Notes: generated from the sequence alone by a model not told the origin. A DNA stretch of 51,173 nucleotides from an uncultured Clostridiaceae bacterium (GCA_964455565.1 CAYVWT010000003.1:1-51173); one strand, 5' to 3'; positions 42 to 22,510 are shown, counted from the first letter of the stretch. Made by a program: numbers and translations.

Positions 42-1862
42 TTAGCATACATTCCTGCCTGCATATTCTGTATACACAAAGCAGGTTTCACATTTATTGC
101 CATGTGCAATACAAAGGTTCCCGTTTACTTCCCAACATTTTTTATCGTATTGGAATTTAACCGGGCATTTATTGCAAATTTCACCCGAAACAAACCTCAT
201 ATTCCAGCAATAATCAAGCGAACAGTCGTTACTTGCTTTTTCTTTTCGTGTTCTATTAAGCCAAGAAAGCAGTGCATTAACAACATTTGAATCAAGCTGA
301 GTGCCTGAAACCTGTTTAATTGCATCTATCGCTTCATCATAGGTGCTTGCATCTCTGAAATTTCTGGGTGAGATTTTAGCAACGAAAAATTGTGCAATAG
401 CAAGCACTTTAGCGCCTATTGGTATATCATTGTCCTTAATTCCATAAGGGTAGCCACATCCATCAATTCTCTCGTGATGGTAGCGTATCATATTTGCAAC
501 CTTTACATCCCCATTTATGGCTTCTATTATATCTGCACCAACCTCTGAATGAAGCTTTATTACTTCATAATCATACTCTGAATATTTTCCTTTTGCAAGG
601 AATATATCGTAGGATAATGCAGCAATACCTATATTACTTAAATATGCCGCTAATTCAATATCACGAATTTCGTTCATCGGAAGCTTTAACTCATTTGCAA
701 TTCCACTCGCATAATACTCCATTAAGCTTGAAAACCCTAATGTATATGGGCTTAAATCATCAACCAAAGTGGAAATTAGCTTCAAGGTTTTTATGCTGTC
801 GTTGGAATTATCCGCAATTCTCAAAGGATTTTTAAACACCTCGGCTATTTTAGAAAACATCAACAGAAGAGAGCTAATTTGATAAGAATCCATATCATAA
901 ATCTGGTCATACCAAAAACCTGCAATTCCTGGGTTCTTACCATAACAAACATTAAATAAAATTAGTTGACGTGCTCCCTCTGAAGCTAAATATACAGGAA
1001 TCCTTTCAAAATTACTATCATTTTTGCTTATTATAGCTACTTTTTTATCTCCAAGAAATTCTTTTAAATAAAGGTGTAGGTCAGAGTCATATTTAAACAT
1101 TAGCTCACATTCATTTGAAAAGCCTGCATTTACCATTAGCTCAATTCCGTCATCTTCTTGGTTAAGGAAAAATCCACCTTTTGCTGAAATAGTTTTTGCA
1201 AACAGCCCAATTGCCATTTTATATATTCCTTCGCCGTTGATAATGCTGACGATACTTCTTATAGCCTGTTTTGATGTCTCGAGAATTTTTATTTTATTGT
1301 TCAATTGTTCTATGGATAAAACCATTGTCACAACAGGCTCGAGCTGTTTTGAAATATTTTGTAATCGGGCTTTAACTTTTCTGTTTAACGAAAATTTTGA
1401 CCTAAATTTAAGTTGAATAAGTGCATTTTCCCCCTTTACAGGAACATTTAAAATCTTTTCCTTATCAACTTCTATTATACCTATTTCACTTTTAACATCT
1501 TCGATGCTTATTCCAAGTGGGAAAACATGCCTCATTTTTTTATGAGGTATAAGCCCAGAATACGCCACATTAAGCTTGTCATCAGGCTCATTTTTAAACC
1601 GCACAGACCTCAATGAAAACTGAGATTTTTTTGAATCAGTCAAATAAAATGCATATTCATCAGCCTTTATTACAGATGAAATCATTTTAAATACTAAATT
1701 AACAGTTTCGTTTGTATTGTTAGCCTTTACGCAACAATCTATAATGCCATCATTAATTTTTTTCTCTTCCTTCACTTTTTTATCACTATTAATAAAAAGA
1801 GCTACTAATATTGCTACCACAACGGCTAACGCAAACACAATATAATAATAAATATCAATCAT
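42..1862 (-). CDS. Membrane-anchored protein with a degenerate HD-GYP domain and a C-terminal Cys-rich tail (candidate c-di-GMP receptor rather than an active phosphodiesterase)
   Basis: Track ORF 42..1877. The first ATG (1862) lies 8 nt after GGAGG, and the TTG at 1877 sits inside that RBS. The upstream gene stops at 1880-1882. There is one N-terminal TM helix (IYYYIVFALAVVVAILVALFI) and a long middle region that is GAF-like by architecture only (unverified). The family signature HHERIDGCGYPYG is present. Expected metal-ligand positions are substituted: H->F (SPYTLGFSS), HD dyad->SN (AAYLSNIGI, codons AGT AAT at 633-638), distal D->Q (LAIAQFFVA). The last 60 aa (nt 45-224) carry 9 Cys, including CNKC and CETC. 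Confidence 0.75.
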   Translation of the reverse strand: MIDIYYYIVFALAVVVAILVALFINSDKKVKEEKKINDGIIDCCVKANNTNETVNLVFKMISSVIKADEYAFYLTDSKKSQFSLRSVRFKNEPDDKLNVAYSGLIPHKKMRHVFPLGISIEDVKSEIGIIEVDKEKILNVPVKGENALIQLKFRSKFSLNRKVKARLQNISKQLEPVVTMVLSIEQLNNKIKILETSKQAIRSIVSIINGEGIYKMAIGLFAKTISAKGGFFLNQEDDGIELMVNAGFSNECELMFKYDSDLHLYLKEFLGDKKVAIISKNDSNFERIPVYLASEGARQLILFNVCYGKNPGIAGFWYDQIYDMDSYQISSLLLMFSKIAEVFKNPLRIADNSNDSIKTLKLISTLVDDLSPYTLGFSSLMEYYASGIANELKLPMNEIRDIELAAYLSNIGIAALSYDIFLAKGKYSEYDYEVIKLHSEVGADIIEAINGDVKVANMIRYHHERIDGCGYPYGIKDNDIPIGAKVLAIAQFFVAKISPRNFRDASTYDEAIDAIKQVSGTQLDSNVVNALLSWLNRTRKEKASNDCSLDYCWNMRFVSGEICNKCPVKFQYDKKCWEVNGNLCIAHGNKCETCFVYTEYAGRNVC

Positions 1863-1879
1863 AATAACTACCTCCAAGA

Positions 1880-3997
1880 TTATTGAGCTAAATTAATTGG
1901 CTTTGTACCATCTTGTTTTAGCTTGTATATTTTTAGTACATCATTTTCCCAATAAACTTCAAAATTCTCTTCTTGCTGGATTTTTTGCTGAATGTAATTT
2001 TCTATCCAATAATATGCCTTTGCCTCAACAATCCTGCGATTTTTATAATTAGTGTAGAACTTTTCATATGCCGCTCCCACGTCTGGGAAAGGTTGATTAT
2101 AATCCTCTTCAGATAGTGGGTTTGTTAAAACATACGGTTGTGCCTGATTAAGTGGCCGCTTTTCAATAAAAACAAATACATAGTCGGTTGGGAACTCAAT
2201 TTTTGCTTTTGGTTTAACTTGAGTTTCTTCAACGAATTGCCATAAATTATAATGCCATCCATACCCTAAGCTTTGTTGGTATTGTTCTACGGGTGATATT
2301 ATAGTCCAATTCAAAAGTGGAAATTCCGACTTAATTTTGTAATATGCATACGCTGCCTCGTCATATTCAAGCTTTGCTCCCACAGGCATAAGCTGTTTAT
2401 AATCCTGCGCTTGAAAAACCGTCATAATTATTAGTGCACCCATAGCAATTTTCACGATATATTTAATAAGCTTATGAAATGGGAAAAACTCAATAATATA
2501 AATTGCCATTGCAAATAAAACTACGACAATAACACCAAAAAATGTGCTTGCACGGGAAAATTCCATAACAGATGGAAAACCTACGTCTATTGAGCGAACC
2601 TGCGTGTATGTAAAGGCAGATAATACAACAAACATAACGAAAAGCTTCATTTTCCCTGTGTATTCCGGGGTTTTTTTGAAAAATATTCGTAAAAGTGCAT
2701 ACGCCAATATTACTATACCAAATATCATAAACAATTTCATAGCTGGATTTGTTTCAACGTATCTAAATATTTCTTCCTTCCAGTTAAGCTTAACGCTAGT
2801 CGTAGCGCTCTCTACAACGAAACCGAGTGACAATGCGTGGAATTTCATACCCATCGAAAGCGCAATTCCAATCGGAAGTAAACTGATTATAGTCGCAAAG
2901 CCCATTGACGCTAAAAGCTGTACGAATGTTTTGCCTTGAAATACCTTGTTAACATTGAGGATTGCAAGAATTACATATCCAATAACAAGGAACAGCGCTA
3001 CATAAAAGTGGATAAACATAGTAACAGCCAAAACCTCTGCCGCTAATATCATATATGTTTTTTTGTTTGTTGTAAAAAATAAATTTAAAAAATAAAACCC
3101 AGGTAGCAAAAATATTGTAGCATACTCCTGTGGAAGTGCAGACATTTGCCTCCAAATATTGTTTGAAGCATTTGGTAGTTCTGTGCCTAATACATACGCT
3201 GCCACGCCGATGAATATAATTAGGTATTGATTTTTAAAGCTCTTTTTTAGTATGTAATAAATTGAAAGAACTATTAAAAAGCTACCCATACCACCAAAAA
3301 ACCTTACTATAACCACAGGGTCTAAGAAAAATAGTTTGCTAATTGCAGAAATTATAGCCTCGTAACCGTATGGATATACTCCATCTTGGTAGATGCTGTT
3401 TATACCCAAATATTTCGTCCACGCTAAATGAACGTAACAGTCTGATGCGCCATAATAAAGAAACTCAAACGAATGTCTAAACCTAATTATAGCGGCAATA
3501 ATGAAAATTCCAAAGAGCAAAATGCCCGCAAAAGGATGCACAAAAAAATGTATGAAAGCATTTTTCAGTCTATCTGGCAACGCCTTTAAATATGCTTTTG
3601 CATATTTTTTTGGTCCACCCAAAAGCCCGGATTTACCATCTACTAAGTCCAAAGAAATAGAAAAAAACCCAACCTCTTCCTCTTTTACTTTATCAGTTTT
3701 AATTGAATAATTTTTGCGAATTGCAAAATATGCAATAAGCAAGGCAATTATTGCAATTGTTAAAGAAATTGTTTCGTAAATTCTAAACAAAACAAGTAAG
3801 TGAACTAAAACAATTATCGCAAAATTAGAATGAGTTAGTGATATAAATACTCTATCCGTCCAATCGTCGGATAATTCATCAAAGGTAACAGCCTTCGAAG
3901 GTATAAATATATATAATATGTAAAAAGCAAGTACAACTTTTAGAAAAAGAATTATTGTAAATTGCAACGGAAACATCATATCACCTCTTCTTTTCAA
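1880..3997 (-). CDS. Large polytopic membrane protein (over 12 predicted TM helices) with a C-terminal soluble domain; possible GT-C-type or polymer-modifying transferase, function unverified
   Basis: 705-aa ORF, hydrophobic throughout. An acidic cluster follows TM1 (FDELSDDWTD). The roughly 170-aa hydrophilic C-terminus is homologous to that of the adjacent 4010..6001 product (NWTIISPVEQYQQSLGYGWHYN vs QWMIISFQEGYTLAFGNGFHMN; DYVFVFIEKRP vs EDIFIFYEKNI). Only 2 nt separate it from the downstream gene's RBS. Confidence 0.6.
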   Translation of the reverse strand: MKRRGDMMFPLQFTIILFLKVVLAFYILYIFIPSKAVTFDELSDDWTDRVFISLTHSNFAIIVLVHLLVLFRIYETISLTIAIIALLIAYFAIRKNYSIKTDKVKEEEVGFFSISLDLVDGKSGLLGGPKKYAKAYLKALPDRLKNAFIHFFVHPFAGILLFGIFIIAAIIRFRHSFEFLYYGASDCYVHLAWTKYLGINSIYQDGVYPYGYEAIISAISKLFFLDPVVIVRFFGGMGSFLIVLSIYYILKKSFKNQYLIIFIGVAAYVLGTELPNASNNIWRQMSALPQEYATIFLLPGFYFLNLFFTTNKKTYMILAAEVLAVTMFIHFYVALFLVIGYVILAILNVNKVFQGKTFVQLLASMGFATIISLLPIGIALSMGMKFHALSLGFVVESATTSVKLNWKEEIFRYVETNPAMKLFMIFGIVILAYALLRIFFKKTPEYTGKMKLFVMFVVLSAFTYTQVRSIDVGFPSVMEFSRASTFFGVIVVVLFAMAIYIIEFFPFHKLIKYIVKIAMGALIIMTVFQAQDYKQLMPVGAKLEYDEAAYAYYKIKSEFPLLNWTIISPVEQYQQSLGYGWHYNLWQFVEETQVKPKAKIEFPTDYVFVFIEKRPLNQAQPYVLTNPLSEEDYNQPFPDVGAAYEKFYTNYKNRRIVEAKAYYWIENYIQQKIQQEENFEVYWENDVLKIYKLKQDGTKPINLAQ

Positions 3998-4009
3998 ATA
4001 ATAATGCGA

Positions 4010-6001
4010 TTACTCGCCATCCCATATTCTTCGCTTCATATCTTCCTTATCTAACTCTTGATGAATTTCCCATATTTCAAGGTCATCATCACTGCTATAC
4101 AAACTTATATTGCTATGAGTACTTTGATATTTTTCAATCCATTGCGAAAGCCTTATATTTTCTTCCAGCTTTGCTTGATACTCTTCACTTTCAACATCTG
4201 CATTATTGCTAAATATATTTTTTTCATAAAATATGAATATATCCTCTGTTTTAAGCACCTTATTAGGCTCTACAGTATAATCTACAAGCTTTTCCTCCTC
4301 GGGGTTATATATATTAATAAAATCACTAATATTCATATGAAATCCATTGCCAAAAGCAAGCGTATATCCCTCTTGAAAGCTAATTATCATCCACTGTGTG
4401 GGGCGAAATGTTTTGGATATTCTAAGGTATTGTTCAACCGTACTGCTGTGCTCTACTTTTCGCGGTATAATTGGAGCCTGTGGCAAATAAGTTAATATCA
4501 ATGCTATTGTTGCGATTAATATTGAATATCCAATAAGTCTACCTTTTATTATTAGCCCAATAAAATCTAAAATTACTACAATTCCAAATGATACTATTAT
4601 AGGTATTAGAAGTGACCAAAGGGTGCTTGCGCTTTCTACCAAATAGCTACTGCTTGTAAATAAAGCTCCATAATAATATGCTAAAAATGAAATTATAGAA
4701 AAAATCAAAACCCATAATTTAGCTATAAACAATTTCTTGTTTTTAAATGCAGGGATTAGGCTAATGAATACTAAAAGAATACAGCCTATTGCGATATAAT
4801 CAAATACTCTAAGATTTATCATTTTAACTTCATCTAAATATGTATAAATCATATTCATAGACGCAGTATTAAATGGCTTACCCATTAAAAAGCCTATAAC
4901 CATAGGCATTATCGATAATATTGCAGAAATTAACATTATAACAAATACTTCAAAAACTTTGTATATTTTGTTTTTTGCATCCCTTATAATATTGGCAAAT
5001 AATAATGATATAAGCCCTATACCAAGAAACACAAACGCCAAAGGATGGATTAAACCAATCACAGTTGCCCCCAAAGAAGCAACTAAAAAATCTTCCCACC
5101 TTGAATTATTGATAAAATCATAATAAAAATATAAAACAGGGAATATAAATACAAATGCAAATTGCTGAGGGTTTGCAGCCACAAGTGACGGCATTACATT
5201 TATAAACATACTTCCAAGCATACCATAAATAACAATAGAAAAAATTCCACCTATTTTGCTTTTAATAGTCCTTGATATAAAAAAGTACATTCCGAGGGCT
5301 ATCATAAGGCTGTTAACAGGGCCAGCAAAATTAACGATATATACTTGGTCCATTAGTGCAAATTTGTGAAGCGTTTCTAAAAATATATAGAACCCTTGGG
5401 GGTAAATATCCCCTGCAAATAGAATCCTATATGCTATGTATTTCATCCACAAAAGTGATGTAAATGTTTCACTTGCCGCTGGTGCGATATTTGTAAAAGT
5501 GCTAAATAAATACAAATATCCAGAATATGCAAGTAGCAACGCTACAAGCATTGTGTGAAGAAAAACCCAGCCATCTCCAAAATAATTTGATATTATTACG
5601 TTCGCTCTTTCTGTTTTCTCATCAAATAATTGCAGTAGCTTTCTTTCTATTCTTTCTATTCTTTCAATATGGTTTATAAAAAGAATATTTAAAATATCCT
5701 TCATATCTTTTATAATATCGCCAGAAGCAATTCTAAGCTTATAGTATTTATAGGCAACACTTAAAATAAGAACTGCAACCATAGTAATACCTTCAAATAG
5801 CTTTAACAAAACAGTAATATATCCGAAAACTATTACCCAAAACATCATTTTTACATAATTTGCAACAATGCTTTTTGTAATATCCTCTTTGTCATAAATA
5901 AAAACAAATCTTGGAACAATAACAAAAAGCAAAGTATAAGTGAAAATATATTTAATGAAACATATTATTATGTCTGTGGATAGCCCCTGCAAATATATCA
6001 C
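4010..6001 (-). CDS. Large polytopic membrane protein, tandem paralogue of 1880..3997
   Basis: 663-aa ORF with the same architecture as its neighbour: multi-TM N-terminal part plus a soluble C-terminal domain. Shared blocks include ASETFTSLLWMKYI..GDIYPQGF vs ASDCYVHLAWTKYL..DGVYPYGY. It contains an in-frame 9-nt tandem repeat encoding IERIERIER. Confidence 0.6.
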   Translation of the reverse strand: MIYLQGLSTDIIICFIKYIFTYTLLFVIVPRFVFIYDKEDITKSIVANYVKMMFWVIVFGYITVLLKLFEGITMVAVLILSVAYKYYKLRIASGDIIKDMKDILNILFINHIERIERIERKLLQLFDEKTERANVIISNYFGDGWVFLHTMLVALLLAYSGYLYLFSTFTNIAPAASETFTSLLWMKYIAYRILFAGDIYPQGFYIFLETLHKFALMDQVYIVNFAGPVNSLMIALGMYFFISRTIKSKIGGIFSIVIYGMLGSMFINVMPSLVAANPQQFAFVFIFPVLYFYYDFINNSRWEDFLVASLGATVIGLIHPLAFVFLGIGLISLLFANIIRDAKNKIYKVFEVFVIMLISAILSIMPMVIGFLMGKPFNTASMNMIYTYLDEVKMINLRVFDYIAIGCILLVFISLIPAFKNKKLFIAKLWVLIFSIISFLAYYYGALFTSSSYLVESASTLWSLLIPIIVSFGIVVILDFIGLIIKGRLIGYSILIATIALILTYLPQAPIIPRKVEHSSTVEQYLRISKTFRPTQWMIISFQEGYTLAFGNGFHMNISDFINIYNPEEEKLVDYTVEPNKVLKTEDIFIFYEKNIFSNNADVESEEYQAKLEENIRLSQWIEKYQSTHSNISLYSSDDDLEIWEIHQELDKEDMKRRIWDGE

Positions 6002-6014
6002 TCCAAGTTATTTA

Positions 6015-7622
6015 TTATGATTGAAAATATATATAATAGTCTAAATTTCTAAATAATTCGAGTATTTTCCGTGAGCTTAATATTAAAAATACTATTGAAC
6101 CAACCAAAAGCCCAAATATTGAATAATAATAGCTAAACCACCTACTAAGCACAAACCCAATAATAATATTTGCCACAAGAGAAATAAGTACTGCCCTGCT
6201 TGCCATTTCGGGCTGTGACATAGAAAACAGCGTAACACAATTCATAAGCGCAACAGATATTATTGAATAGCTAATTAGTCCAACTATAAAAACAAAATGT
6301 GTCACATAGCTCTCTAAAAAGCCACTTCTAAAACCTTCTATTGGGTAACGGTCAAAGTAAAACACAACCAAATATGTAAAAAGTGCACTTATAACTGATA
6401 TAATTGCTACATAAATAAGGCGTCTGAAATAAATTTTCCTAAACACAGTATCGATTCTAAAAGCATCCTTGCCATAAGCATTTCTTTGCTTTTCGGATAG
6501 CTCGTCCATTAGCTTACTAACAACAACCTCACACGCACCCATTGGAACAATTAGCATTAAAAGTGCAAAATCAAGCCCTAATTCATACGCACCTCTAAAC
6601 CAAATGATATATGGCATATACGAATTATTTGTAGACCAACCAATTATTCTATCCATAAATAAAAATGCAAAATATAAAAATCCATAAGCAAAAAATGGAT
6701 ATGTAGTGTAAAGCGTAATTGATTTTTTGGGAAGAGCAGGCTCTAACCCCTTCCCCATTTTACTTTCTTCCTTGTGGAAAAAATATAGAACCAACAAAAT
6801 ACCTGCTATGGAAACTATAAATAGTGCAATTATCTGAGAAACAATAATATTAAGATTTAGTACCTTGAAAAGCAAATATACTATTGCAATACCTGCAACA
6901 ATAAGACCAGTAAAAGTAAACTCTCTCTCTAAAATATACATTACCGTAACCGAAAACCAAATTGCACACAAGAAAATATAGTATAGTAAAATTACCATCA
7001 TCATTTTAAATGTAAAAGCCTCGAAAACACTATTGAATAGGAAAAATACAAGTGAAACCACTATGGTTAAAATATAGCCTAATTTTATAAAATACATAGT
7101 TATTTTCCGTGCCAAATTGAAATAACCTTGCCGTATATACATAAATCCTCTTCTTGCGATTGCCTGCATAAACCCACCAACGGTTAAAAAACTAAATATT
7201 GTACCAATAGCTATACAGGTTGCAAGCTCGACAGATAAATATTCATACGACCAAAGCGAAAAACGAAGTGTAAGCATAGCGATAACTGAAATCGCCATAG
7301 GAATTGCGAAAATTACCCCTCTTATAAAGCTTTTAAAAACAATGCCTGCCTTATGTACTAAGGAGTTCTTTTTTTCATCTGCAAACGAAGAAAAGTTAAC
7401 GTCATCATTAACCACATTAAATATTTCAAGGGCCAACTCGAAAACATCAGTCATACCAAATATATTAAGAACTCTACCATCACTCCATCCAATAGACTCT
7501 AAAATGGCGGCAATTTCATAATGATTTTCGGGATACGGCTGTTTTTCCAGCACCTCGCCTATTAAGTTATTAAAGGTTGTTTCTAACCGTTCAGCATTAA
7601 CATTTTTTTCAAAACGAATCAT
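6015..7622 (-). CDS. Polytopic membrane protein with a roughly 100-aa cytoplasmic N-terminal domain; possible exporter, family not recognised
   Basis: 535-aa ORF. The N-terminal 100 aa are hydrophilic (…HYEIAAILESIGWSDGRVLNIFGMTDVFELA…) and are followed by about 10-12 hydrophobic segments. It sits where a PelG-type exporter would be expected downstream of the PelF-like gene. I could not confirm PelG homology by eye. Confidence 0.45.
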   Translation of the reverse strand: MIRFEKNVNAERLETTFNNLIGEVLEKQPYPENHYEIAAILESIGWSDGRVLNIFGMTDVFELALEIFNVVNDDVNFSSFADEKKNSLVHKAGIVFKSFIRGVIFAIPMAISVIAMLTLRFSLWSYEYLSVELATCIAIGTIFSFLTVGGFMQAIARRGFMYIRQGYFNLARKITMYFIKLGYILTIVVSLVFFLFNSVFEAFTFKMMMVILLYYIFLCAIWFSVTVMYILEREFTFTGLIVAGIAIVYLLFKVLNLNIIVSQIIALFIVSIAGILLVLYFFHKEESKMGKGLEPALPKKSITLYTTYPFFAYGFLYFAFLFMDRIIGWSTNNSYMPYIIWFRGAYELGLDFALLMLIVPMGACEVVVSKLMDELSEKQRNAYGKDAFRIDTVFRKIYFRRLIYVAIISVISALFTYLVVFYFDRYPIEGFRSGFLESYVTHFVFIVGLISYSIISVALMNCVTLFSMSQPEMASRAVLISLVANIIIGFVLSRWFSYYYSIFGLLVGSIVFLILSSRKILELFRNLDYYIYFQS

Positions 7623-7635
7623 TTATTAGTCCCCA

Positions 7636-8697
7636 TTACTGTTGAAGTGTCATATTTATTATAAGCTCAGGTAATTTTGATTCTCTTTCTGCTACAATTA
7701 TATCTTCCTCGGTTAAAACCCTACCCTTAGGTATTACAATATTATTATTACTGTCTAACAAGTCTTCCCCTGCAATTTTGCCAAGTATTAAAGCATTACG
7801 CATTTTCTTAATATCGTCATCACTTGAATTAATCTCTTCACTTGTATCGCTAAAATTATCGTCCATTGGTATTTCTTCTTCGGTATTTTCAAAATCGTAT
7901 AAATTCTCGTACTCATCAAACTTATCGGAATAGTCGATGTCACTATTTAAAAAATCTAATTCGTCATCAAAAGTTTTGGTATGGGTAGATTTTTTGGGTA
8001 TCTGCACCTTATTTTCTTCAACTTCTTCCTTGCTTAAATATTTATTTTTAAAGGCAAATAGCTTTTGGATAGTATCTAAGGAGCTTCCGTCTGCCGTGGT
8101 TCTTCTTGCCCCATCTTTTTCTAATATCGATTTTTCTTCGATCATTTTTCCTTCGAACAATTCTATTACATTTTTATTTGTCTTAGCAACATTTTCGGGA
8201 CTGCGGTTTACTTTTGACTTATCCTTTATTTTAGAAGTAACATCATCAACATTTTCTTTTAATAGCTTAACGACATCCCCTAATAATGATTCTATTTTTG
8301 CCTTGTTTTCCTCAATTTCTTGGCGAAGTCTTTCTGCTATTTTATCATATTCGACTAATTTATCATAGCTTTTTTCCATCAATTGATTTGCTTCTTCATC
8401 TGCCAACATATTTATAAGCGCAATAGTTTTTTCAATACGTTTTAATGCATTATCCATCACTTCATTTGATAATGGTGACTCTCCTACAACTTCATCCTCG
8501 TAAACTATTTCCTCTTTTTTAGAGGCTTGAAGCTCTGAAAGCAATTTATTTTTATCCTTATAAAGCTTATCAATTTCCTCTGATAAATCATTTATATCTT
8601 TACTTTGTTTTTTTGTTAGGTTGTCAAAGTAAGTGTCTACATCTGACTTATTTAAACCAAAAAACTTAGTTGGAATATTAAACCTAAGACCTCTCAT
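7636..8697 (-). CDS. DivIVA-like coiled-coil protein with an acidic linker and a small C-terminal domain
   Basis: AGGAGGTG RBS 5 nt upstream of the ATG at 8697. The N-terminus FNIPTKFFGLNKSDVDTYFDNL fits the DivIVA/GpsB N-terminal pattern (F..GY...EVD.FL). K/E-rich heptad coiled coil follows. The first roughly 150 aa are paralogous to the N-terminus of the 13451..15340 product. Confidence 0.65.
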   Translation of the reverse strand: MRGLRFNIPTKFFGLNKSDVDTYFDNLTKKQSKDINDLSEEIDKLYKDKNKLLSELQASKKEEIVYEDEVVGESPLSNEVMDNALKRIEKTIALINMLADEEANQLMEKSYDKLVEYDKIAERLRQEIEENKAKIESLLGDVVKLLKENVDDVTSKIKDKSKVNRSPENVAKTNKNVIELFEGKMIEEKSILEKDGARRTTADGSSLDTIQKLFAFKNKYLSKEEVEENKVQIPKKSTHTKTFDDELDFLNSDIDYSDKFDEYENLYDFENTEEEIPMDDNFSDTSEEINSSDDDIKKMRNALILGKIAGEDLLDSNNNIVIPKGRVLTEEDIIVAERESKLPELIINMTLQQ

Positions 8698-12088: not shown

Positions 12089-13405
12089 TTAGTATTTAAA
12101 TTCGTCATTTTCCCAATAGCCATTTTTAATTGTGCTATCTGCAGAAACTTGCTTGCCATTACCATTTTTCTTTCCGTTTTTCCATTCACCTTCATATAAT
12201 TCGCCAGTTGAATAATAAAAAGTGCCATATCCGTTAAATTCGCCATTACTCCACTGACCATCATAATAATTGCCATTATTCCATTGGAACCGACCTTTTC
12301 CAGAAATAAGCCCCTTATGCCATCCTCCAGAATAACTGTCACCACTTACCCATCTCATTGTGCCAATTCCTTGAAAAACTCCATCAACAATCTCGCCATC
12401 ATAATTATCGCCATTTGGCCATTGAAGGTTACATTTTCCATTCATACTATCGTTCTTCCAACCGCCAGAATATATAAACCCATCGGTTCGAGTTAGTTTT
12501 CCTTGCCCCTCTCGAATTCCGCCTGAAACCTGCCCTTCATACCTGCTACCGTCCTCATAATTTACTGCACCATAACCATTTGGAATACCATTAAAGCTTT
12601 CACCAATATATGCCGAACCATCTTTCATAGCAAGAACTTGGTTTTGATTAGAGTTAGAGTTAGAGTTAGAATTCGTATAATTATTATCTGTATTTGAAGT
12701 ATAAGTGTTGAAAACTGGCGCCTGATAATGCCCGTTGTAATAAGAAAAACCCAGCCTTACAAGGCGTTCTGTTTGAAGTTGGTTATTACTTGCTATTTTG
12801 TCAATGAGCACAGTATTATCATATGTTTTAACCTTCAAAGTTTCCCATAAAATTTCAATCATATCATTCTTGTTAAGAACTTTATCGTTTAAATTTTTAG
12901 CTTCTTTTGGAGGAATACCGCCAAAATAGGAATTGATATAAGCAGAAATTGTCGACATATTACTATCTAAGCTATATCCCATAGATTTTAATAGCATAGC
13001 TGTGAAAGTCTTTCCATCAATAAGCCTTTTAGGTGAAATGCTGTTACCTTGAATATCTAACAGTATCCTTTGATTAATTCCATAAGCAATATATTTTCTT
13101 GCCCAATCAGAAACCGTTGATCTGTCATTATAATTATTTAAGATGTTCCTAACATCGTATTCTGAGAGGCTTTGAATATCACTTTTCGATTTTACTAATC
13201 TCAGCAAAAATACAACCGCTGTTTCTGTATCAACGAAAGAGTTTAAGTCGGGCTCGAAAAAGCTTTGCGAAACACCATTATAAAAACCTAAATCATATAG
13301 AATTCTTGCTTCTTCAATATAGCTATTAGAAGCATATACATTAAAGCTAAGCGAAAATGTTAAAAGCAAAATAATACTTATTATATTTTTCATTATTCTT
13401 ACCAT
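12089..13405 (-). CDS. Secreted MORN-repeat protein with an SLH-like N-terminal module
   Basis: Signal peptide MVRIMKNIISIILLLTFSLSFNVYA. The N-terminal half has SLH-like segments (GFYNGVSQSFFEPDLNSFVDTETAVVFLLRL; DWARKYIAYGINQRIL). An (NS)n/NQ linker follows, then at least 7 MORN-type repeats (YEGQVSGGIREGQG, YSGGWKNDSMNGKC, YDGEIVDGVFQGIG, YSGGWHKGLISGKG, YDGQWSNGEFNGYG, YEGEWKNGKKNGNG). Confidence 0.7.
   Translation of the reverse strand: MVRIMKNIISIILLLTFSLSFNVYASNSYIEEARILYDLGFYNGVSQSFFEPDLNSFVDTETAVVFLLRLVKSKSDIQSLSEYDVRNILNNYNDRSTVSDWARKYIAYGINQRILLDIQGNSISPKRLIDGKTFTAMLLKSMGYSLDSNMSTISAYINSYFGGIPPKEAKNLNDKVLNKNDMIEILWETLKVKTYDNTVLIDKIASNNQLQTERLVRLGFSYYNGHYQAPVFNTYTSNTDNNYTNSNSNSNSNQNQVLAMKDGSAYIGESFNGIPNGYGAVNYEDGSRYEGQVSGGIREGQGKLTRTDGFIYSGGWKNDSMNGKCNLQWPNGDNYDGEIVDGVFQGIGTMRWVSGDSYSGGWHKGLISGKGRFQWNNGNYYDGQWSNGEFNGYGTFYYSTGELYEGEWKNGKKNGNGKQVSADSTIKNGYWENDEFKY
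12640..12676. repeat. In-frame hexanucleotide tandem repeat (gagtta)n encoding the (NS)n linker of the MORN protein
   Basis: gattagagttagagttagagttagaattc read directly. It translates on the minus strand as NSNSNSNSN. Confidence 0.9.
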
Positions 13406-13450: not shown

Positions 13451-15340
13451 TTAAACGTACATATATGCCTCTTCTTCAGGCAATGGTTTTGCTAAATAAA
13501 ACCCTTGCAAATAATCACATTTCATATCTACAAGCATCTCACATTGAATATTATCTTCAACGCCCTCTGCTACTACTTTAAGCCCTAAATCATGGGTTAT
13601 GCTTATAATTGACCTAATAAACATTTCGCATTTTTCATTTGTTTTTAAATCGTCTAAGAAGGTTTTGTCTATTTTAATAATAGAAACTGGCATTTTCAAT
13701 AAATATGATAGGCTTGAATAGCCTGTGCCAAAATCGTCAATTGAAATAGTAATGCCCATATTTCTAATTTGTTCAATCTTCAAGCAATTTTCTTTAAAGT
13801 TATCCATAAAGCAGGATTCTGTTATCTCAAACCCTAAATTGTTTGGAGAAACACCTATTTGTTCAATAATTTTGGTAATATTTCCGATGAATTCATCTTT
13901 TAATATCTGCGTTGGTGTAAAATTTATATACACAATCAAATTTTTCTTACTGTTTTTTGAATTTATCCTCTTAGCAAAATAGCACGCCTTTTTAAATATA
14001 AGGTCGGTTATGTCATCTAATAGAGCCTCTTTTTCTGCTATTTGAATAATGTTATAAATAGGAATTTTATTGTATCTTTCATCTGTCCACCTAAGAAGCG
14101 CTTCAAACCCATACAATTCCTTGGTTTCAGATAAATACTGTGGTTGATAGTATAGTTCAAGTGCTTTTTGTTCTATTGCCTCAACTAAGTCAAGCTTCAT
14201 ATCATTACTAAATTTCAAATCATCAATCAAAACTTCATCTGCAAAATAGTATAAATTTTTGCCTTGATCTTTCGACTTATATAAAGCAATGCCGGCATAA
14301 TTCATAATAGCTTCGCTATTATTTGAATTGTTATCATATACAGAAATACCAATATTGGCAGATAACTCAGCCTTTTTATCTTTAACTATAATTTTTCTGC
14401 TAATTTGCTTTAAAATAATTTTCGCTAATTTCCCAATAGTATCTGCATTGCCTATGCCATTATATATTATGCCTACTTGGTCATAAGAGAGCCTTGCAAC
14501 ATATAGGTTGTCATTTATGCCTTTAATTCTGGTTAAAACTTCATTTATGAGTATATCATCAGAATATGAATCGAACAAGTAATTTGCAACAATAAATTCA
14601 TTTATTTCTATAAGAAGCAATGCTCCACTTGCTTTTTCGCCACCATCTGCACTATTTAAAATTGCATTTAAATTTTTTAAAAATTCCGTCTTTGTATCAT
14701 TATATGACGCCAGGCTTTTTATTACTTTTTCTTCAACAATTTTTGGTATTTTGTTGTAGGGCTTTGCCTCTTCATCTCTTTTACCAAAGAGTCCTATCAC
14801 ATCATTTTTATTATTTCCTGTAAAATCAACATTTTTTATCACGTTAAAATCTTCGTCATCTGATACGTGCATATTACCTTTTATGTGTATATCATCTATA
14901 TTTGTTTTTAGCAAAGAAATAACCTGAGCCAACAAATTTTCAATTCTTTCTTTTTTGTCATCAATTTCGTTTTGCAGGTCATTTAGGATTGCGTCATATT
15001 CTTCAATCTGAAACTTCGCTCTTTCTATAATTTGTTCGATTTTCTGATTTGCAATTTCGTCAATAAGTGAAATTGTTTTTTCAACCCTTTTATGAGCATC
15101 AATCATAAGCTCATTTTGGTTTATAAGTGGGGCTTCATCTTTATATATTATTTGATCTTGCTTCGCTTGTTCAAGTTCAAGAAGCAAATTTTCTTTTTTA
15201 GTTTCAAGCATTTTGATTTCTCTAATTAGCTTGTTTAATAATTTATTATGTCCTTCTAAAAGGCTCTCAATAAAATAATCGACATCATCTTTGTTAAGCC
15301 CTAAATATTTAGTTGGTATAGTTATATTTGGTGGTAACAT
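13451..15340 (-). CDS. DivIVA-like N-terminal coiled coil fused to a degenerate GGDEF domain and an intact EAL domain (c-di-GMP phosphodiesterase)
   Basis: The likely start is the ATG at 15340 (MLPPNITIPTKYLGLNKDDVDYFIESL), which aligns with the start of paralogue 7636..8697. The GGDEF motif position reads SYDQV (VARLSYDQVGII). EAL catalytic motifs are all present: YGFEALLRW, YINFTP, GFEITES, IDDFGTGYSS, IKIDKTF, VAEGVED, LQGFYLAKP. Confidence 0.8.
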   Translation of the reverse strand: MLPPNITIPTKYLGLNKDDVDYFIESLLEGHNKLLNKLIREIKMLETKKENLLLELEQAKQDQIIYKDEAPLINQNELMIDAHKRVEKTISLIDEIANQKIEQIIERAKFQIEEYDAILNDLQNEIDDKKERIENLLAQVISLLKTNIDDIHIKGNMHVSDDEDFNVIKNVDFTGNNKNDVIGLFGKRDEEAKPYNKIPKIVEEKVIKSLASYNDTKTEFLKNLNAILNSADGGEKASGALLLIEINEFIVANYLFDSYSDDILINEVLTRIKGINDNLYVARLSYDQVGIIYNGIGNADTIGKLAKIILKQISRKIIVKDKKAELSANIGISVYDNNSNNSEAIMNYAGIALYKSKDQGKNLYYFADEVLIDDLKFSNDMKLDLVEAIEQKALELYYQPQYLSETKELYGFEALLRWTDERYNKIPIYNIIQIAEKEALLDDITDLIFKKACYFAKRINSKNSKKNLIVYINFTPTQILKDEFIGNITKIIEQIGVSPNNLGFEITESCFMDNFKENCLKIEQIRNMGITISIDDFGTGYSSLSYLLKMPVSIIKIDKTFLDDLKTNEKCEMFIRSIISITHDLGLKVVAEGVEDNIQCEMLVDMKCDYLQGFYLAKPLPEEEAYMYV

Positions 15341-15499
15341 ATTATTACATTCCTTCCCTTGTATAAGCATAAACAGTATATACTTATATTAATTACACAA
15401 TGTAATTATACCTGTTATTAAACATATATTAAAGGCTTTTGTTATTTTTGGAATATGTAATGTATTTTTTAAATCATAATAACTAAAAATATAACGTTT

Positions 15500-16216
15500 C
15501 TACATTCCATCATACTCTGTAAGATATTTCGTATAATGCATAAAGGCTGCCTTTTTCCTGCTTTTACTTATGGGGATTACATAACCATTAGTGAGTATAA
15601 TATCACCCTCAACAATTGTTTTTATATGTGCCATATTAACCAAAAAACCCTGATGGACTCGAACAAATCCAAAAGTTTTTAACCTTTCCTCTTCGATTGT
15701 AAGCTTTGAATAAAAACCTATTCTGTCATTTGTGGTTACGGCAAAAACTTGCCTCTTAACACTTTCTAAATATAATAAATTATCTATATTTATTGTGATT
15801 AGCCTTGATTTTGTTTGTACAGAATATCGCTTTTCATTTTTGAATAATTCTTTGATGGCACTACTATAAGCTTTTTTTATTTGCTCCTCTGTAAAAGGCT
15901 TCATAATGTATCTAAATGCTTTCACCTCGTAGCCTAAAAAAACATAGTCCATACTTGATGTAACAAAAAATACTAAAACGCTACTATCAATTTCCAAAAT
16001 GCTCCTTACTGTTTCTATGCCATCAAGCTTTCCAAGCTTTGTTTCAAGGAATATCATATTAAAACGTATGCCCTTCTTTTTATACGCTGCAATAAGGTCC
16101 TCTCCACTATTATATAAATATATTTCCATTTCTCGGAATTCACGGTTATAGCTGCTTAATATTTGCCTTAATTCCTCAGCACTATTATTATCACAATCGC
16201 AAATTGCAATTTTCAT
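15500..16216 (-). CDS. Orphan LytTR-family response regulator with an atypical receiver domain (Glu at the phospho-acceptor position)
   Basis: The ATG at 16216 (MKIAICDCDNN) lies downstream of GGAAAGGA. Receiver domain: NMIFLETKLGKLDGIE, where the canonical motif is ..D..MP.MDG (D->E); FFVTS and IMKPF are conserved. C-terminal LytTR domain: LLYLESVKRQVFAVTTNDRIGFYSKLTIEEERL…FVRVHQGFLVNMAHI. No histidine kinase gene is adjacent. Confidence 0.8.
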   Translation of the reverse strand: MKIAICDCDNNSAEELRQILSSYNREFREMEIYLYNSGEDLIAAYKKKGIRFNMIFLETKLGKLDGIETVRSILEIDSSVLVFFVTSSMDYVFLGYEVKAFRYIMKPFTEEQIKKAYSSAIKELFKNEKRYSVQTKSRLITINIDNLLYLESVKRQVFAVTTNDRIGFYSKLTIEEERLKTFGFVRVHQGFLVNMAHIKTIVEGDIILTNGYVIPISKSRKKAAFMHYTKYLTEYDGM

Positions 16217-16299
16217 ATTTATAGCCACTATCCTTTCCCGCTCACGAAAATTAGTGAAATATATCAATATAATTTTATGCCTTTAACGGCTATGATTAC

Positions 16300-18470: not shown

Positions 18471-18528
18471 CGAATTTCACCTCATTAGATATGCATATTT
18501 CTAATTTTAACAGTTATTAATAACAAAT

Positions 18529-18559
18529 GCAAGCTAAACGAAAGTTATGTTTAGCTTGC
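18529..18559 (-). terminator. Intrinsic terminator downstream of the SLH-lectin gene
   Basis: Perfect 11-bp stem gcaagctaaac / gtttagcttgc with a 9-nt loop. It is followed on the minus strand by ATTTGTTATT. Confidence 0.7.
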
Positions 18560-18574
18560 ATTATTTTACAGCAT

Positions 18575-21145: not shown

Positions 21146-21237
21146 AATTTTTTCTCCTCTTATATAATTTTATTTTTTATTGTTAAATTTACATATATAT
21201 TAACAAGGTAGCCCTTGAAATAATTTATTTAGAGTAC

Positions 21238-21301
21238 AAAAAAAGCCGTATATAAACCGAATATGAAGATTTCTCTACATAATATTGGAATAATAAACGG
21301 C
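21238..21301 (-). terminator. Intrinsic terminator/attenuator inside the 5' leader of the lectin gene
   Basis: Minus-strand RNA GCCGUUUAUUAUUCCAAUAU…AUAUUCGGUUUAUAUACGGC forms a long imperfect hairpin with a 4 G-C pair base. It is followed by UUUUUUU (A-run at 21238-21244 on the plus strand). It lies about 90 nt upstream of the RBS and ATG at 21145. Confidence 0.65.
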
Positions 21302-21393
21302 AGCTGGCTGTCATATCCTAAACGAATTATGGACTTAGACCCTATAGCTTTGTGCAATTGCCTTTCAGCAATTATACTTTTTACGATTGTTAT
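21290..21393 (-). promoter_or_regulatory. GEMM-I (c-di-GMP-I)-like riboswitch aptamer candidate, possibly a variant
   Basis: Minus-strand RNA …AAAAAGUAU-AAUUGCU-GAAA-GGCAAUU-GCACAAAGCUAUAGGGUC-UAAG-UCC…GGA-UAU-GACAGCCAGCUGCCG. One hairpin is capped by a GAAA tetraloop (21356-21373). The adjacent hairpin (21306-21342) carries a near-canonical 11-nt tetraloop receptor: UCUAAG/UAUGA versus canonical CCUAAG/UAUGG, with a compensated C-G to U-A pair. The CAAAGC linker matches the ACGCAAAGC linker of GEMM-I. The 3' flank GCCGUUUAU is the 5' arm of the terminator. Confidence 0.55.
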
Positions 21394-21399
21394 AATGAC

Positions 21400-21428
21400 A
21401 TAATATAACAAAATTTTAAATATGTCAA
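21400..21428 (-). promoter_or_regulatory. Candidate sigma-A promoter of the lectin-gene leader
   Basis: On the minus strand: TTGACA (21428-21423), 17 nt spacer, TATTAT (21405-21400). Confidence 0.5.
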
Positions 21429-21445: not shown

Positions 21446-22510
21446 TTATATATTTTTTTCCAAATATGCTTTTAGTGCATTTATATGCCCCTTTGCCCGT
21501 TCAAAAATAACGCTATCTACTTTGTAATTATTCTTTTTTTCAATTAGCAAGCTAACAAGCCTCGTCGCATCAATTGATTTTACATCAGAGAATAAAATTC
21601 TTTCCCCTGTGTAATTCAAATCATTCAAAGCATTATCCAGTTTTTTTGAATATATAATAGGGAAAAAAGGAATTCCCATACGCATAGCAAGTATAGCAGA
21701 ATGAAACCTAACTGCTATAATTGTGCTACACCTTGCCGTATTTTTTATAATATTATCACCATTATCTATATGTAAAATTATTTCTACCATTTCAGCATTT
21801 TTGCATAGAGACTGTATGGTATATGCAGCTACAACATCATTTTCATTTTCAATATCATAGGCGAAAAGCAAAACCTTTTTACCTGTTTTTTCTATATATT
21901 TATCAGCAATTTTAGCCATAGCAGTATAATAATCATAGTTCAAATGTGGCTTTGAATTATTTCTATAAGCAGAAATTCCAAGGCAACCTTCATCGTTTTT
22001 TACAAGCCACTCACTCGGCATAGAAAAAACAATGTCTGGAAAACAACTTGTTATAGTTTTTTTTGTATGGTTTTTAATATAATTATAAGAATACGTATCT
22101 CTTGTTGTGATTAGCCCAAAATAATTCATTTCCATTCTTGAAATAAGCTCTGCAAATTTATTTAAAAACGGTCCAACATTACAACCAATTGTGATTAGCC
22201 TTTTGCATTTACTATGCTCCTTTTTATATTTCAACACTGTTTTTATTGCATAGTACATTCCAATTTTGCTTGTAATCATAAAGCCAGAGCCTATAACCCT
22301 AACCATTGCATCAAAATTTGTTACCCCACTTTCTGCAATGCTATAAATATTATCAATGTCTTTAAAAGGTATTAGGAGTTCATTTTTATTAGTTTTTAGG
22401 TATAGCCTATGCTCGTTTAGCTCAAGCGCCAATATTCTTAGCATAATGTCATCGCCAAAATTTCTATCCAAATAACAATCAACTAAAATATTAATAAAAG
22501 TCACCTCCAC
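21446..22510 (-). CDS. Polysaccharide pyruvyl transferase family protein (CsaB/WcaK-like)
   Basis: Motifs DRNFGDDIML, ITTRDTYSYNYI and AVRFHSAILAMRMGIPFFPIIYSKK are typical of PS_pyruv_trans. The start codon is uncertain because the GTG at 22510 lies within a GGAGGTG string. Confidence 0.65.
   Translation of the reverse strand: MEVTFINILVDCYLDRNFGDDIMLRILALELNEHRLYLKTNKNELLIPFKDIDNIYSIAESGVTNFDAMVRVIGSGFMITSKIGMYYAIKTVLKYKKEHSKCKRLITIGCNVGPFLNKFAELISRMEMNYFGLITTRDTYSYNYIKNHTKKTITSCFPDIVFSMPSEWLVKNDEGCLGISAYRNNSKPHLNYDYYTAMAKIADKYIEKTGKKVLLFAYDIENENDVVAAYTIQSLCKNAEMVEIILHIDNGDNIIKNTARCSTIIAVRFHSAILAMRMGIPFFPIIYSKKLDNALNDLNYTGERILFSDVKSIDATRLVSLLIEKKNNYKVDSVIFERAKGHINALKAYLEKNI

Follow-up and report, generated by a model that had tools for sequence, protein, structure and literature searches.

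Genes around the lectin leader

The window, that is the whole stretch of 51,173 nucleotides that was analysed, comes from a low-GC (34.9%) spore-forming Firmicute, with SpoIIP, Gpr and hrcA-grpE-dnaK-dnaJ among its genes. Its minus strand encodes a secreted lectin, which has a signal-peptide-like sequence at the N-terminus, a legume-type lectin domain (Lectin_legB, 6.5e-32), Big_9/cadherin-like domains (Big_9, 1.5e-13) and an SLH anchor (3.7e-14). The stop codon of this gene is followed by a hairpin that is a likely terminator, so the gene is probably monocistronic and the switch described below would control one gene. Upstream lies a gene for a polysaccharide pyruvyl transferase, which belongs to the context and is outside the switch. 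Pyruvylated wall polymer is the established binding partner of SLH domains.

The first-pass annotation had placed the SLH-anchored lectin beside genes linked to c-di-GMP, and the window indeed encodes a PelF-like glycosyltransferase, an EAL phosphodiesterase and an HD-GYP-like protein. The EAL domain is intact in a GGDEF-EAL protein (13451-15370, minus strand) that lacks the GGDEF motif. Its gene adjoins that of a LytTR response regulator (15500-16267, minus strand), lies downstream of the lectin and of a Cu_amine_oxidN1 protein, and is apparently split into two ORFs in one related assembly (L185). A gene flanked by the EAL gene and that of a GT2 glycosyltransferase encodes a MORN-repeat protein of 438 residues (12089-13405, minus strand), of a kind uncommon in bacteria. 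Four consecutive large ORFs of 705, 663, 535 and 353 residues (1880-8697, minus strand), which separate the PelF-like glycosyltransferase from the HD-GYP-like gene, have no Pfam or NCBIfam match, even at E = 0.5. The HD-GYP-like protein (611 residues; 42-1877, minus strand) closes the PelF-like cluster; its catalytic HD dyad reads SN (AAYLSNIG), HHE...GYP is kept, and the protein may be a degenerate HD-GYP of receptor type.

The features of the lectin leader and of its two flanking genes are listed below, with residue numbers of the Vc2 aptamer of Vibrio cholerae where these apply.

21446..22510, minus strand: polysaccharide pyruvyl transferase (CsaB-like; PS_pyruv_trans 1.7e-23)
21400..21428, minus strand: sigma-70-type promoter, -35 box TTGACA (21428..21423), 17-nt spacer, -10 box TATTAT (21405..21400), 11/12 matches
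21384..21393, minus strand: P1 5' strand AUAACAAUCG, register set from the Vc2 pairs (PMC11705072)
21296..21388, minus strand: c-di-GMP-I (GEMM-I) aptamer, RF01051 covariance-model match
21378..21383, minus strand: J1/2 junction UAAAAA, 6 nt, its final base 21378 being Vc2 position 20
21352..21377, minus strand: P2 (P1b) hairpin, with G21-C46 at 21377/21352, U22-A45 and tetraloop GAAA at 21366..21363, from RF01051 alignment and fold
21349..21351, minus strand: equivalents of A47, A48 and A49, AAA within CACAAAGC, all canonical, from RF01051 alignment and Vc2 numbering
21302..21349, minus strand: P3 helix with the 11-nt receptor, UCUAAG (21339..21334) and UAUGA (21315..21311), from alignment and compensatory changes relative to L063
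21290..21300, minus strand: C92 equivalent (21300) and P1 3' strand (21299..21290), the strand common to the terminator
21238..21301, minus strand: intrinsic terminator, GCCGU (21301..21297) and ACGGC (21249..21245) followed by U7 (21244..21238), from fold and U run
21204..21217, minus strand: small hairpin CAAGG-GCUA-CCUUG between terminator and ribosome-binding site, z = -2.9, with stem kept and loop variable in L060 and L062
18575..21145, minus strand: regulated gene, 856-residue secreted lectin (Pfam-type domain matches), ribosome-binding site GAGGAG at 21159..21154
18526..18562, minus strand: 14-bp hairpin right after the lectin stop codon, -18.6 kcal/mol, z = -3.8
21378, minus strand: equivalent of Vc2 G20, base found A
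21351, minus strand: equivalent of Vc2 A47, base found A
21300, minus strand: equivalent of Vc2 C92, base found C
21354, minus strand: equivalent of Vc2 C44, base found C
21308, minus strand: equivalent of Vc2 G83, base found G

Structure of the aptamer

The leader element is a genuine, conserved member of the class I c-di-GMP riboswitch family that can be detected by standard means. The Rfam c-di-GMP-I model RF01051 matches 21388..21296 on the minus strand over model positions 1-87 of 87, with 63.3 bits against a gathering threshold of 35 (E = 3.9e-10), and this is the sole Rfam match in the 51-kb window. The first-pass annotation had called a GEMM-I-like riboswitch at this place and proposed the RF01051 search, which returns a full-length match, far beyond chance. 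The existence of the riboswitch is not surprising in itself, since standard Rfam annotation alone would detect the element.

The individual parts proposed by eye are mostly present as well. The promoter lies where it was proposed, the first hairpin AAUUGCU-GAAA-GGCAAUU is borne out by both alignment and fold, and the c-di-GMP-I-type joiner CACAAAGC is found in the alignment. The tetraloop/receptor feature of the family is formed by GAAA in P2 and UCUAAG/UAUGA in P3. The latter is the 11-nt GAAA receptor with a C-G pair replaced by U-A, as had been noticed; it equals the Rfam consensus uCUAAg/uAuGa, so the compensated pair is simply the family consensus.

P1 is AU-rich, has two mismatches and is missing from the ligand-free minimum free energy fold, which is expected of a helix that is stabilised by ligand. 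Its top pairs, G21384-C21299 and C21385-G21298, correspond to G14-C93 and C13-G94 of Vc2, and below them P1 consists of a U/U mismatch, two A-U pairs, a C/A mismatch and four A-U pairs, ending at 21393/21290. The register adopted is the Vc2-like one (model G5-C84 and C4-G85), in agreement with the P1a pairs G11-C97, A12-U96, C13-G94 and G14-C93 given for Vc2 by a 2025 NMR study (PMC11705072). Another register (model i+j = 95), along with two apparent compensatory pairs, was dropped on account of these Vc2 pairs.

Residues are numbered by adding 9 to the Rfam model position, a rule that fits all Vc2 pairs listed in PMC11705072. Besides the P1a pairs, the Vc2 contacts comprise G21-C46, C22-G45, A25.G42, C44-G83, A48.U90 and a stack of A33 on A62 (PMC11705072). 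In the window, the contact and tertiary residues A47, C92, C44, G83, A48 and U90 are all canonical, and every direct ligand contact except position 20 is retained. At position 20 the base is A, in agreement with the first reading of the sequence. The same reading had assigned a G to position 47, and this does not hold: the equivalent of A47 is the A at 21351, and the G that had been seen is A43 changed to G. The pairs next to position 20 remain G-C and U-A, in agreement with the earlier description, but their partners are not C50 and G49, the true pairs being G21-C46 and C22-G45.

Orthologous leaders

An exact look-up of the lectin gave no entry, and close homologues are rare, three being found among 5.8 billion clustered proteins, with 90, 84 and 55% identity. 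Leaders were collected from the metagenome contigs of these homologues and from contigs reached via the adjoining pyruvyl-transferase gene, and another five complete leaders and a cut one were obtained. The aptamer precedes the lectin gene in the orthologues of 90% and 55% identity and follows the orthologous genes for pyruvyl transferase, and every complete orthologous leader has an RF01051 match of 59-63 bits. Among the five distinct leaders, a small sample with two deep lineages, standard pairs occupy 96% of the Rfam-helix cells and four pairs are changed on both sides; controls with slid partners reach at most 49% pairing. The first-pass annotation had asked for a comparison of homologous leaders; in those collected, P2 and P3 are maintained by compensatory change.

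The leader of the 55% orthologue (L063) belongs to another gene neighbourhood and has its own promoter, TTGACA-17-TATACT, at the corresponding place. Its terminator is a different, compact hairpin followed by U7 (z = -3.1), in which the aptamer's GCCG strand again takes part, and the terminator of the window is kept in L060 and L062. Such preservation of the architecture despite turnover of the sequence argues for function.

Some details of the tertiary contacts vary among these leaders. In the L063 aptamer (L063:7833-7925) the P2 loop is GAGA and P3 is a simple helix interrupted by a single bulge, without the 11-nt receptor, so both partners are changed together; its 5' strand also lacks the CG of the P1 top, and AAUAG/CUAUU could pair instead, leaving a longer junction. 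In L186, a C to U change at the equivalent of 21385 gives a U.G pair in P1. In three independent assemblies of close relatives (L060:5755-5847, L185:11123-11207 and L187:1796-1880), UAAA replaces the GAAA tetraloop of P2, at the site equivalent to window position 21366, and the 11-nt receptor is kept. Docking may be weakened in these relatives, since a U at the start of the loop cannot form the sheared G.A pair of a GNRA tetraloop.

Beyond these relatives, a genome scan with the lectin as query gave distant lectin-domain genes alone (at most 40% identity), from other phyla. A regular expression for the GEMM-I core, which recovered all positive controls, found the core at none of 59 distant lectin loci, so the link between riboswitch and lectin is confined to the Firmicute lineage of the window.

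Terminator and switching direction

The terminator hairpin described by the first-pass annotation, GCCGU...ACGGC followed by U7, is found at 21301..21238, with a 5' arm that overlaps the aptamer at its 3' end, including C92 and the P1 3' strand. The stem is long and imperfect. It folds with -14.3 kcal/mol (z = -2.8), and none of 200 shuffled sequences is as stable. A pattern scan for terminators missed the riboswitch terminator, whose apical part is beyond the loop limit of the scan; folding detected the hairpin.

Since the 5' arm of the terminator contains C92 and the P1 3' strand, the ligand-bound aptamer and the terminator exclude each other. The earlier statement that aptamer folding and termination are mutually exclusive is therefore correct for P1 and C92 and does not extend to P2 and P3, which are compatible with the terminator in the fold. 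The ON-switch layout that had been suggested agrees with the sharing of C92 and the P1 3' strand by a terminator in the leader of an SLH-anchored lectin gene. From this structure we infer the direction of switching, and the leader RNA is probably a c-di-GMP-I transcriptional ON switch for one gene, that of the SLH-anchored lectin.

Transcription is predicted to begin near 21393, where the 5' strand of P1 starts. When the ligand is scarce, P1 would be weak and the strand GCCGUUU... (21301..21290) would pair with ACGGC (21249..21245), and the resulting hairpin with its U7 would halt RNA polymerase ahead of the lectin gene. When c-di-GMP is present, it would bind at the three-helix junction, where one guanine would pair with C92 (21300), the second would be read by A20 (21378), probably in protonated form, and A47 would stack between both guanines. 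P1 would then be locked and the terminator blocked, and the lectin mRNA would be made.

Lower-P2 internal loop

The internal loop of lower P2, which in Vc2 is formed by A23, A24 and A25 opposite G42, A43 and C44 (AAA/GAC), is replaced in the window by AUA (21375..21373) opposite UGC (21356..21354). Compared to Vc2, position 42 is U, A24 is changed to U and A43 to G, which abolishes the sheared A25.G42 pair. Both partners of the long-range pair, C44 (21354) and G83 (21308), are present. In the fold, A25-U42 and U24.G43 are able to pair, leaving A23 and C44 alone unpaired.

AAA/GAC or AAA/GGC is the near-invariant state among 107 sampled aptamers (see below); AUA/UGC is found in none of the 107, and none is able to pair at both model positions 16-33 and 15-34. 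The AUA/UGC loop is confined to the lineage of the window (five assemblies), and L063 retains AAA/GAC. The affinity and selectivity for c-di-GMP and cGAMP reportedly shift with point mutations in lower P2 (PMC9262584). The AUA/UGC loop is the one feature on which an altered ligand preference could still rest, and such a preference is possible but unsupported.

The lost A25.G42 pair, the UAAA loops of the three related assemblies and the weak P1 are also what would be seen if the leader were decaying or ligand-independent, with binding lost through the change of G20 to A, the remodelled loop and the UAAA loops, and with the terminator left as a constitutive attenuator. Such decay is highly improbable: covariance-model scores stay high, all helices are maintained by compensatory changes over a divergence down to 55% identity, the direct ligand contacts are kept except at position 20, and L063 has recreated the overlap of terminator and aptamer by means of another hairpin.

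Position 20 and ligand preference

The change from G20 to A, which the first-pass annotation took as a possible sign of altered ligand specificity, is real, and A20 is fixed across all six leaders (that of the window and those of the orthologues). As a sign of cGAMP specificity it does not stand, given how frequent A20 is in the family and how A20 aptamers behave in published binding experiments.

The frequency of A20 was obtained from metagenome contigs with a pattern that combines a tetraloop, a CRCAAAGC joiner and a CAGCC..GYUGCCG strand and that is blind to position 20. The pattern demands C at model position 37, which excludes the C-G closing pair of the Gs1761 type. Among 107 distinct in-register aptamers, all of them with a Vc2-like G21-C46 pair, A20 occurs in 17 (16%) and G20 in 89. 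U19 accompanies A20 in 11 of the 17 and G20 in 5 of the 89 (metagenome loci L065-L184); the window itself has A19-A20 and L063 has U19-A20. In one gut-metagenome locus, L172 differs from L086 and L132 by A20 or G20 as the sole difference over about 285 nt, from 80 nt before the tetraloop to 205 nt after it. The difference, which falls on the specificity position, reflects either natural polymorphism or an error of sequencing.

Wild-type Vc2 binds c-di-GMP with picomolar KD and cGAMP with a KD of 10 uM, and its G20A mutant has KDs of 53 nM and 120 nM for the same ligands (PMC6140456). Cbe 1-2, a natural A20 aptamer of Clostridium beijerinckii, binds c-di-GMP with a KD of 30 nM and cGAMP with 463 nM, a 15-fold preference for c-di-GMP, while Gs1761 of Geobacter has KDs of 660 nM for c-di-GMP and 0.53 nM for cGAMP (PMC6140456). 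Bispecific binding in vitro is common for A20 aptamers, and A20 is a known natural state in the family (PMC6140456), so its presence does not speak against membership. The A20G mutation turns Gmet_0970 to c-di-GMP selectivity (PMC6456294). According to these affinities and the Gmet_0970 mutant, A20 is necessary for cGAMP selectivity and far from sufficient.

A switch of the cGAMP-selective GEMM-Ib type, in which A20 would pair with the adenine of 3'3'-cGAMP and cGAMP would turn the lectin on, is suggested by several properties of the leader. The fixation of A20 over substantial divergence could reflect selection for a property that G20 does not give, A20 is necessary in Geobacter (PMC6456294), the ON layout matches the pilM cGAMP switch (PMC9262584), and lower P2, which is able to tune selectivity (PMC9262584), is unusual in the window. 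Candidate cGAMP-specific HD-GYP enzymes are also reportedly common in Firmicutes (bioRxiv 10.1101/600031). This role for cGAMP is nevertheless very doubtful. A20 alone leads to dual binding in Vc2 G20A and goes along with a c-di-GMP preference in the natural Clostridium aptamer (PMC6140456), and it is frequent in the 107 aptamers and differs as a single base in the gut-metagenome locus. The pair beside position 20 is G-C in the window, like in Vc2, and not C-G like in Gs1761, whose P2 begins with C15-G40 (PMC6274999). Validated cGAMP riboswitches are reported from Gram-negative bacteria (PMC9262584). The ORFs of the 51-kb window include no Hypr GGDEF, active cyclase or CD-NTase, the single GGDEF domain being degenerate. 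At the specificity position, Hypr GGDEF enzymes have Ser or Thr and canonical cyclases have Asp. Cyclic dinucleotide HD-GYP enzymes specific for cGAMP have the motif RxxQ/N, and those of the canonical, guanine-reading type have Rxx(K/R) (bioRxiv 10.1101/600031); the base-reading motif of the HD-GYP-like protein is RNFR (RxxR), which is the c-di-GMP type.

The bispecificity of A20 aptamers in vitro (PMC6140456), together with the conservation of A20 in the window lineage, would also fit a dual sensor, in which c-di-GMP and 3'3'-cGAMP (for example a CBASS or Hypr product) both drive the lectin and two signals are integrated. This is unlikely too, since binding of both ligands in vitro may be without consequence in the cell, the genes around the leader in the 51-kb window relate to c-di-GMP only, and the window has no sign of cGAMP made as a housekeeping signal.

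Most likely, the leader is a c-di-GMP switch in which A20 lowers affinity and relaxes selectivity and the physiological ligand is unchanged, which is the most economical reading. It is improbable, by comparison, that the aptamers of the lectin leaders make up a Firmicute lineage of shifted preference, either cGAMP-selective or truly dual, for which the fixed A20 and the AUA/UGC loop of the window lineage could be the sources. If this were true, riboswitches would read cGAMP outside the Deltaproteobacteria too, and a lectin of the cell surface would be under the control of this signal.

Possible role of the switch

Under c-di-GMP control, high levels of the second messenger would lead to a wall-anchored lectin encoded beside a pyruvyl transferase and a PelF-like polysaccharide cluster, which fits a sticky or sessile programme. 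The lectin probably serves to attach cells to a polysaccharide matrix, and a wall-anchored legume-type lectin would be a new kind of target for direct control by a c-di-GMP riboswitch. A20 and the unusual loop also make the leader RNA a cheap test case for the bases beyond position 20 that set the preference for c-di-GMP or cGAMP, a question still open in the literature.

Comparison with known riboswitches

Vc2 (Vibrio cholerae, RF01051) and the window aptamer share the three-helix junction, the G-C/C-G top of P1, the 6-nt J1/2, the G21-C46 pair, the docking of GAAA on the 11-nt receptor, the C44-G83 partners and the A47 and C92 contacts. They differ at position 20 (G in Vc2, A in the window), in the second pair of P2 (C22-G45 replaced by U-A) and in the internal loop, where AUA/UGC puts a possible A-U pair plus a U.G pair in place of the sheared A25.G42. 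Vc2 does not work by means of such a terminator (PMC6366702), whereas the leader in the window has a classic terminator ON platform.

The Geobacter GEMM-Ib aptamers (Gs1761, Gmet_0970 and pilM) resemble the window aptamer in having A at position 20, and pilM is also a transcriptional ON switch, with a terminator that takes up C75, the equivalent of C92 and the cytosine with which the guanine of the ligand pairs (PMC9262584). The P2 closing pair is G-C in the window and C15-G40 in Gs1761 (PMC6274999). The host of the window is a low-GC spore-forming Firmicute and not a deltaproteobacterium, no cGAMP synthase is seen near its aptamer in the window, and the target is a lectin, whereas the Geobacter targets are cytochrome, pilus or exoelectrogenesis genes.

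The most relevant analogue with measured affinities is Cbe 1-2, likewise an A20 aptamer of this family from a Firmicute, which binds both ligands and uses a protonated adenine for c-di-GMP (PMC6140456); the comparison concerns published affinities, and its preference is not simply transferable to the aptamer in the window. In function, the closest parallel is the Bc2/cap system of Bacillus thuringiensis, which is also a class I ON switch with read-through into a Firmicute surface adhesin gene (PMC6366702). The target of Bc2 is a collagen adhesion protein, whereas that of the window is an SLH-anchored legume-type lectin.
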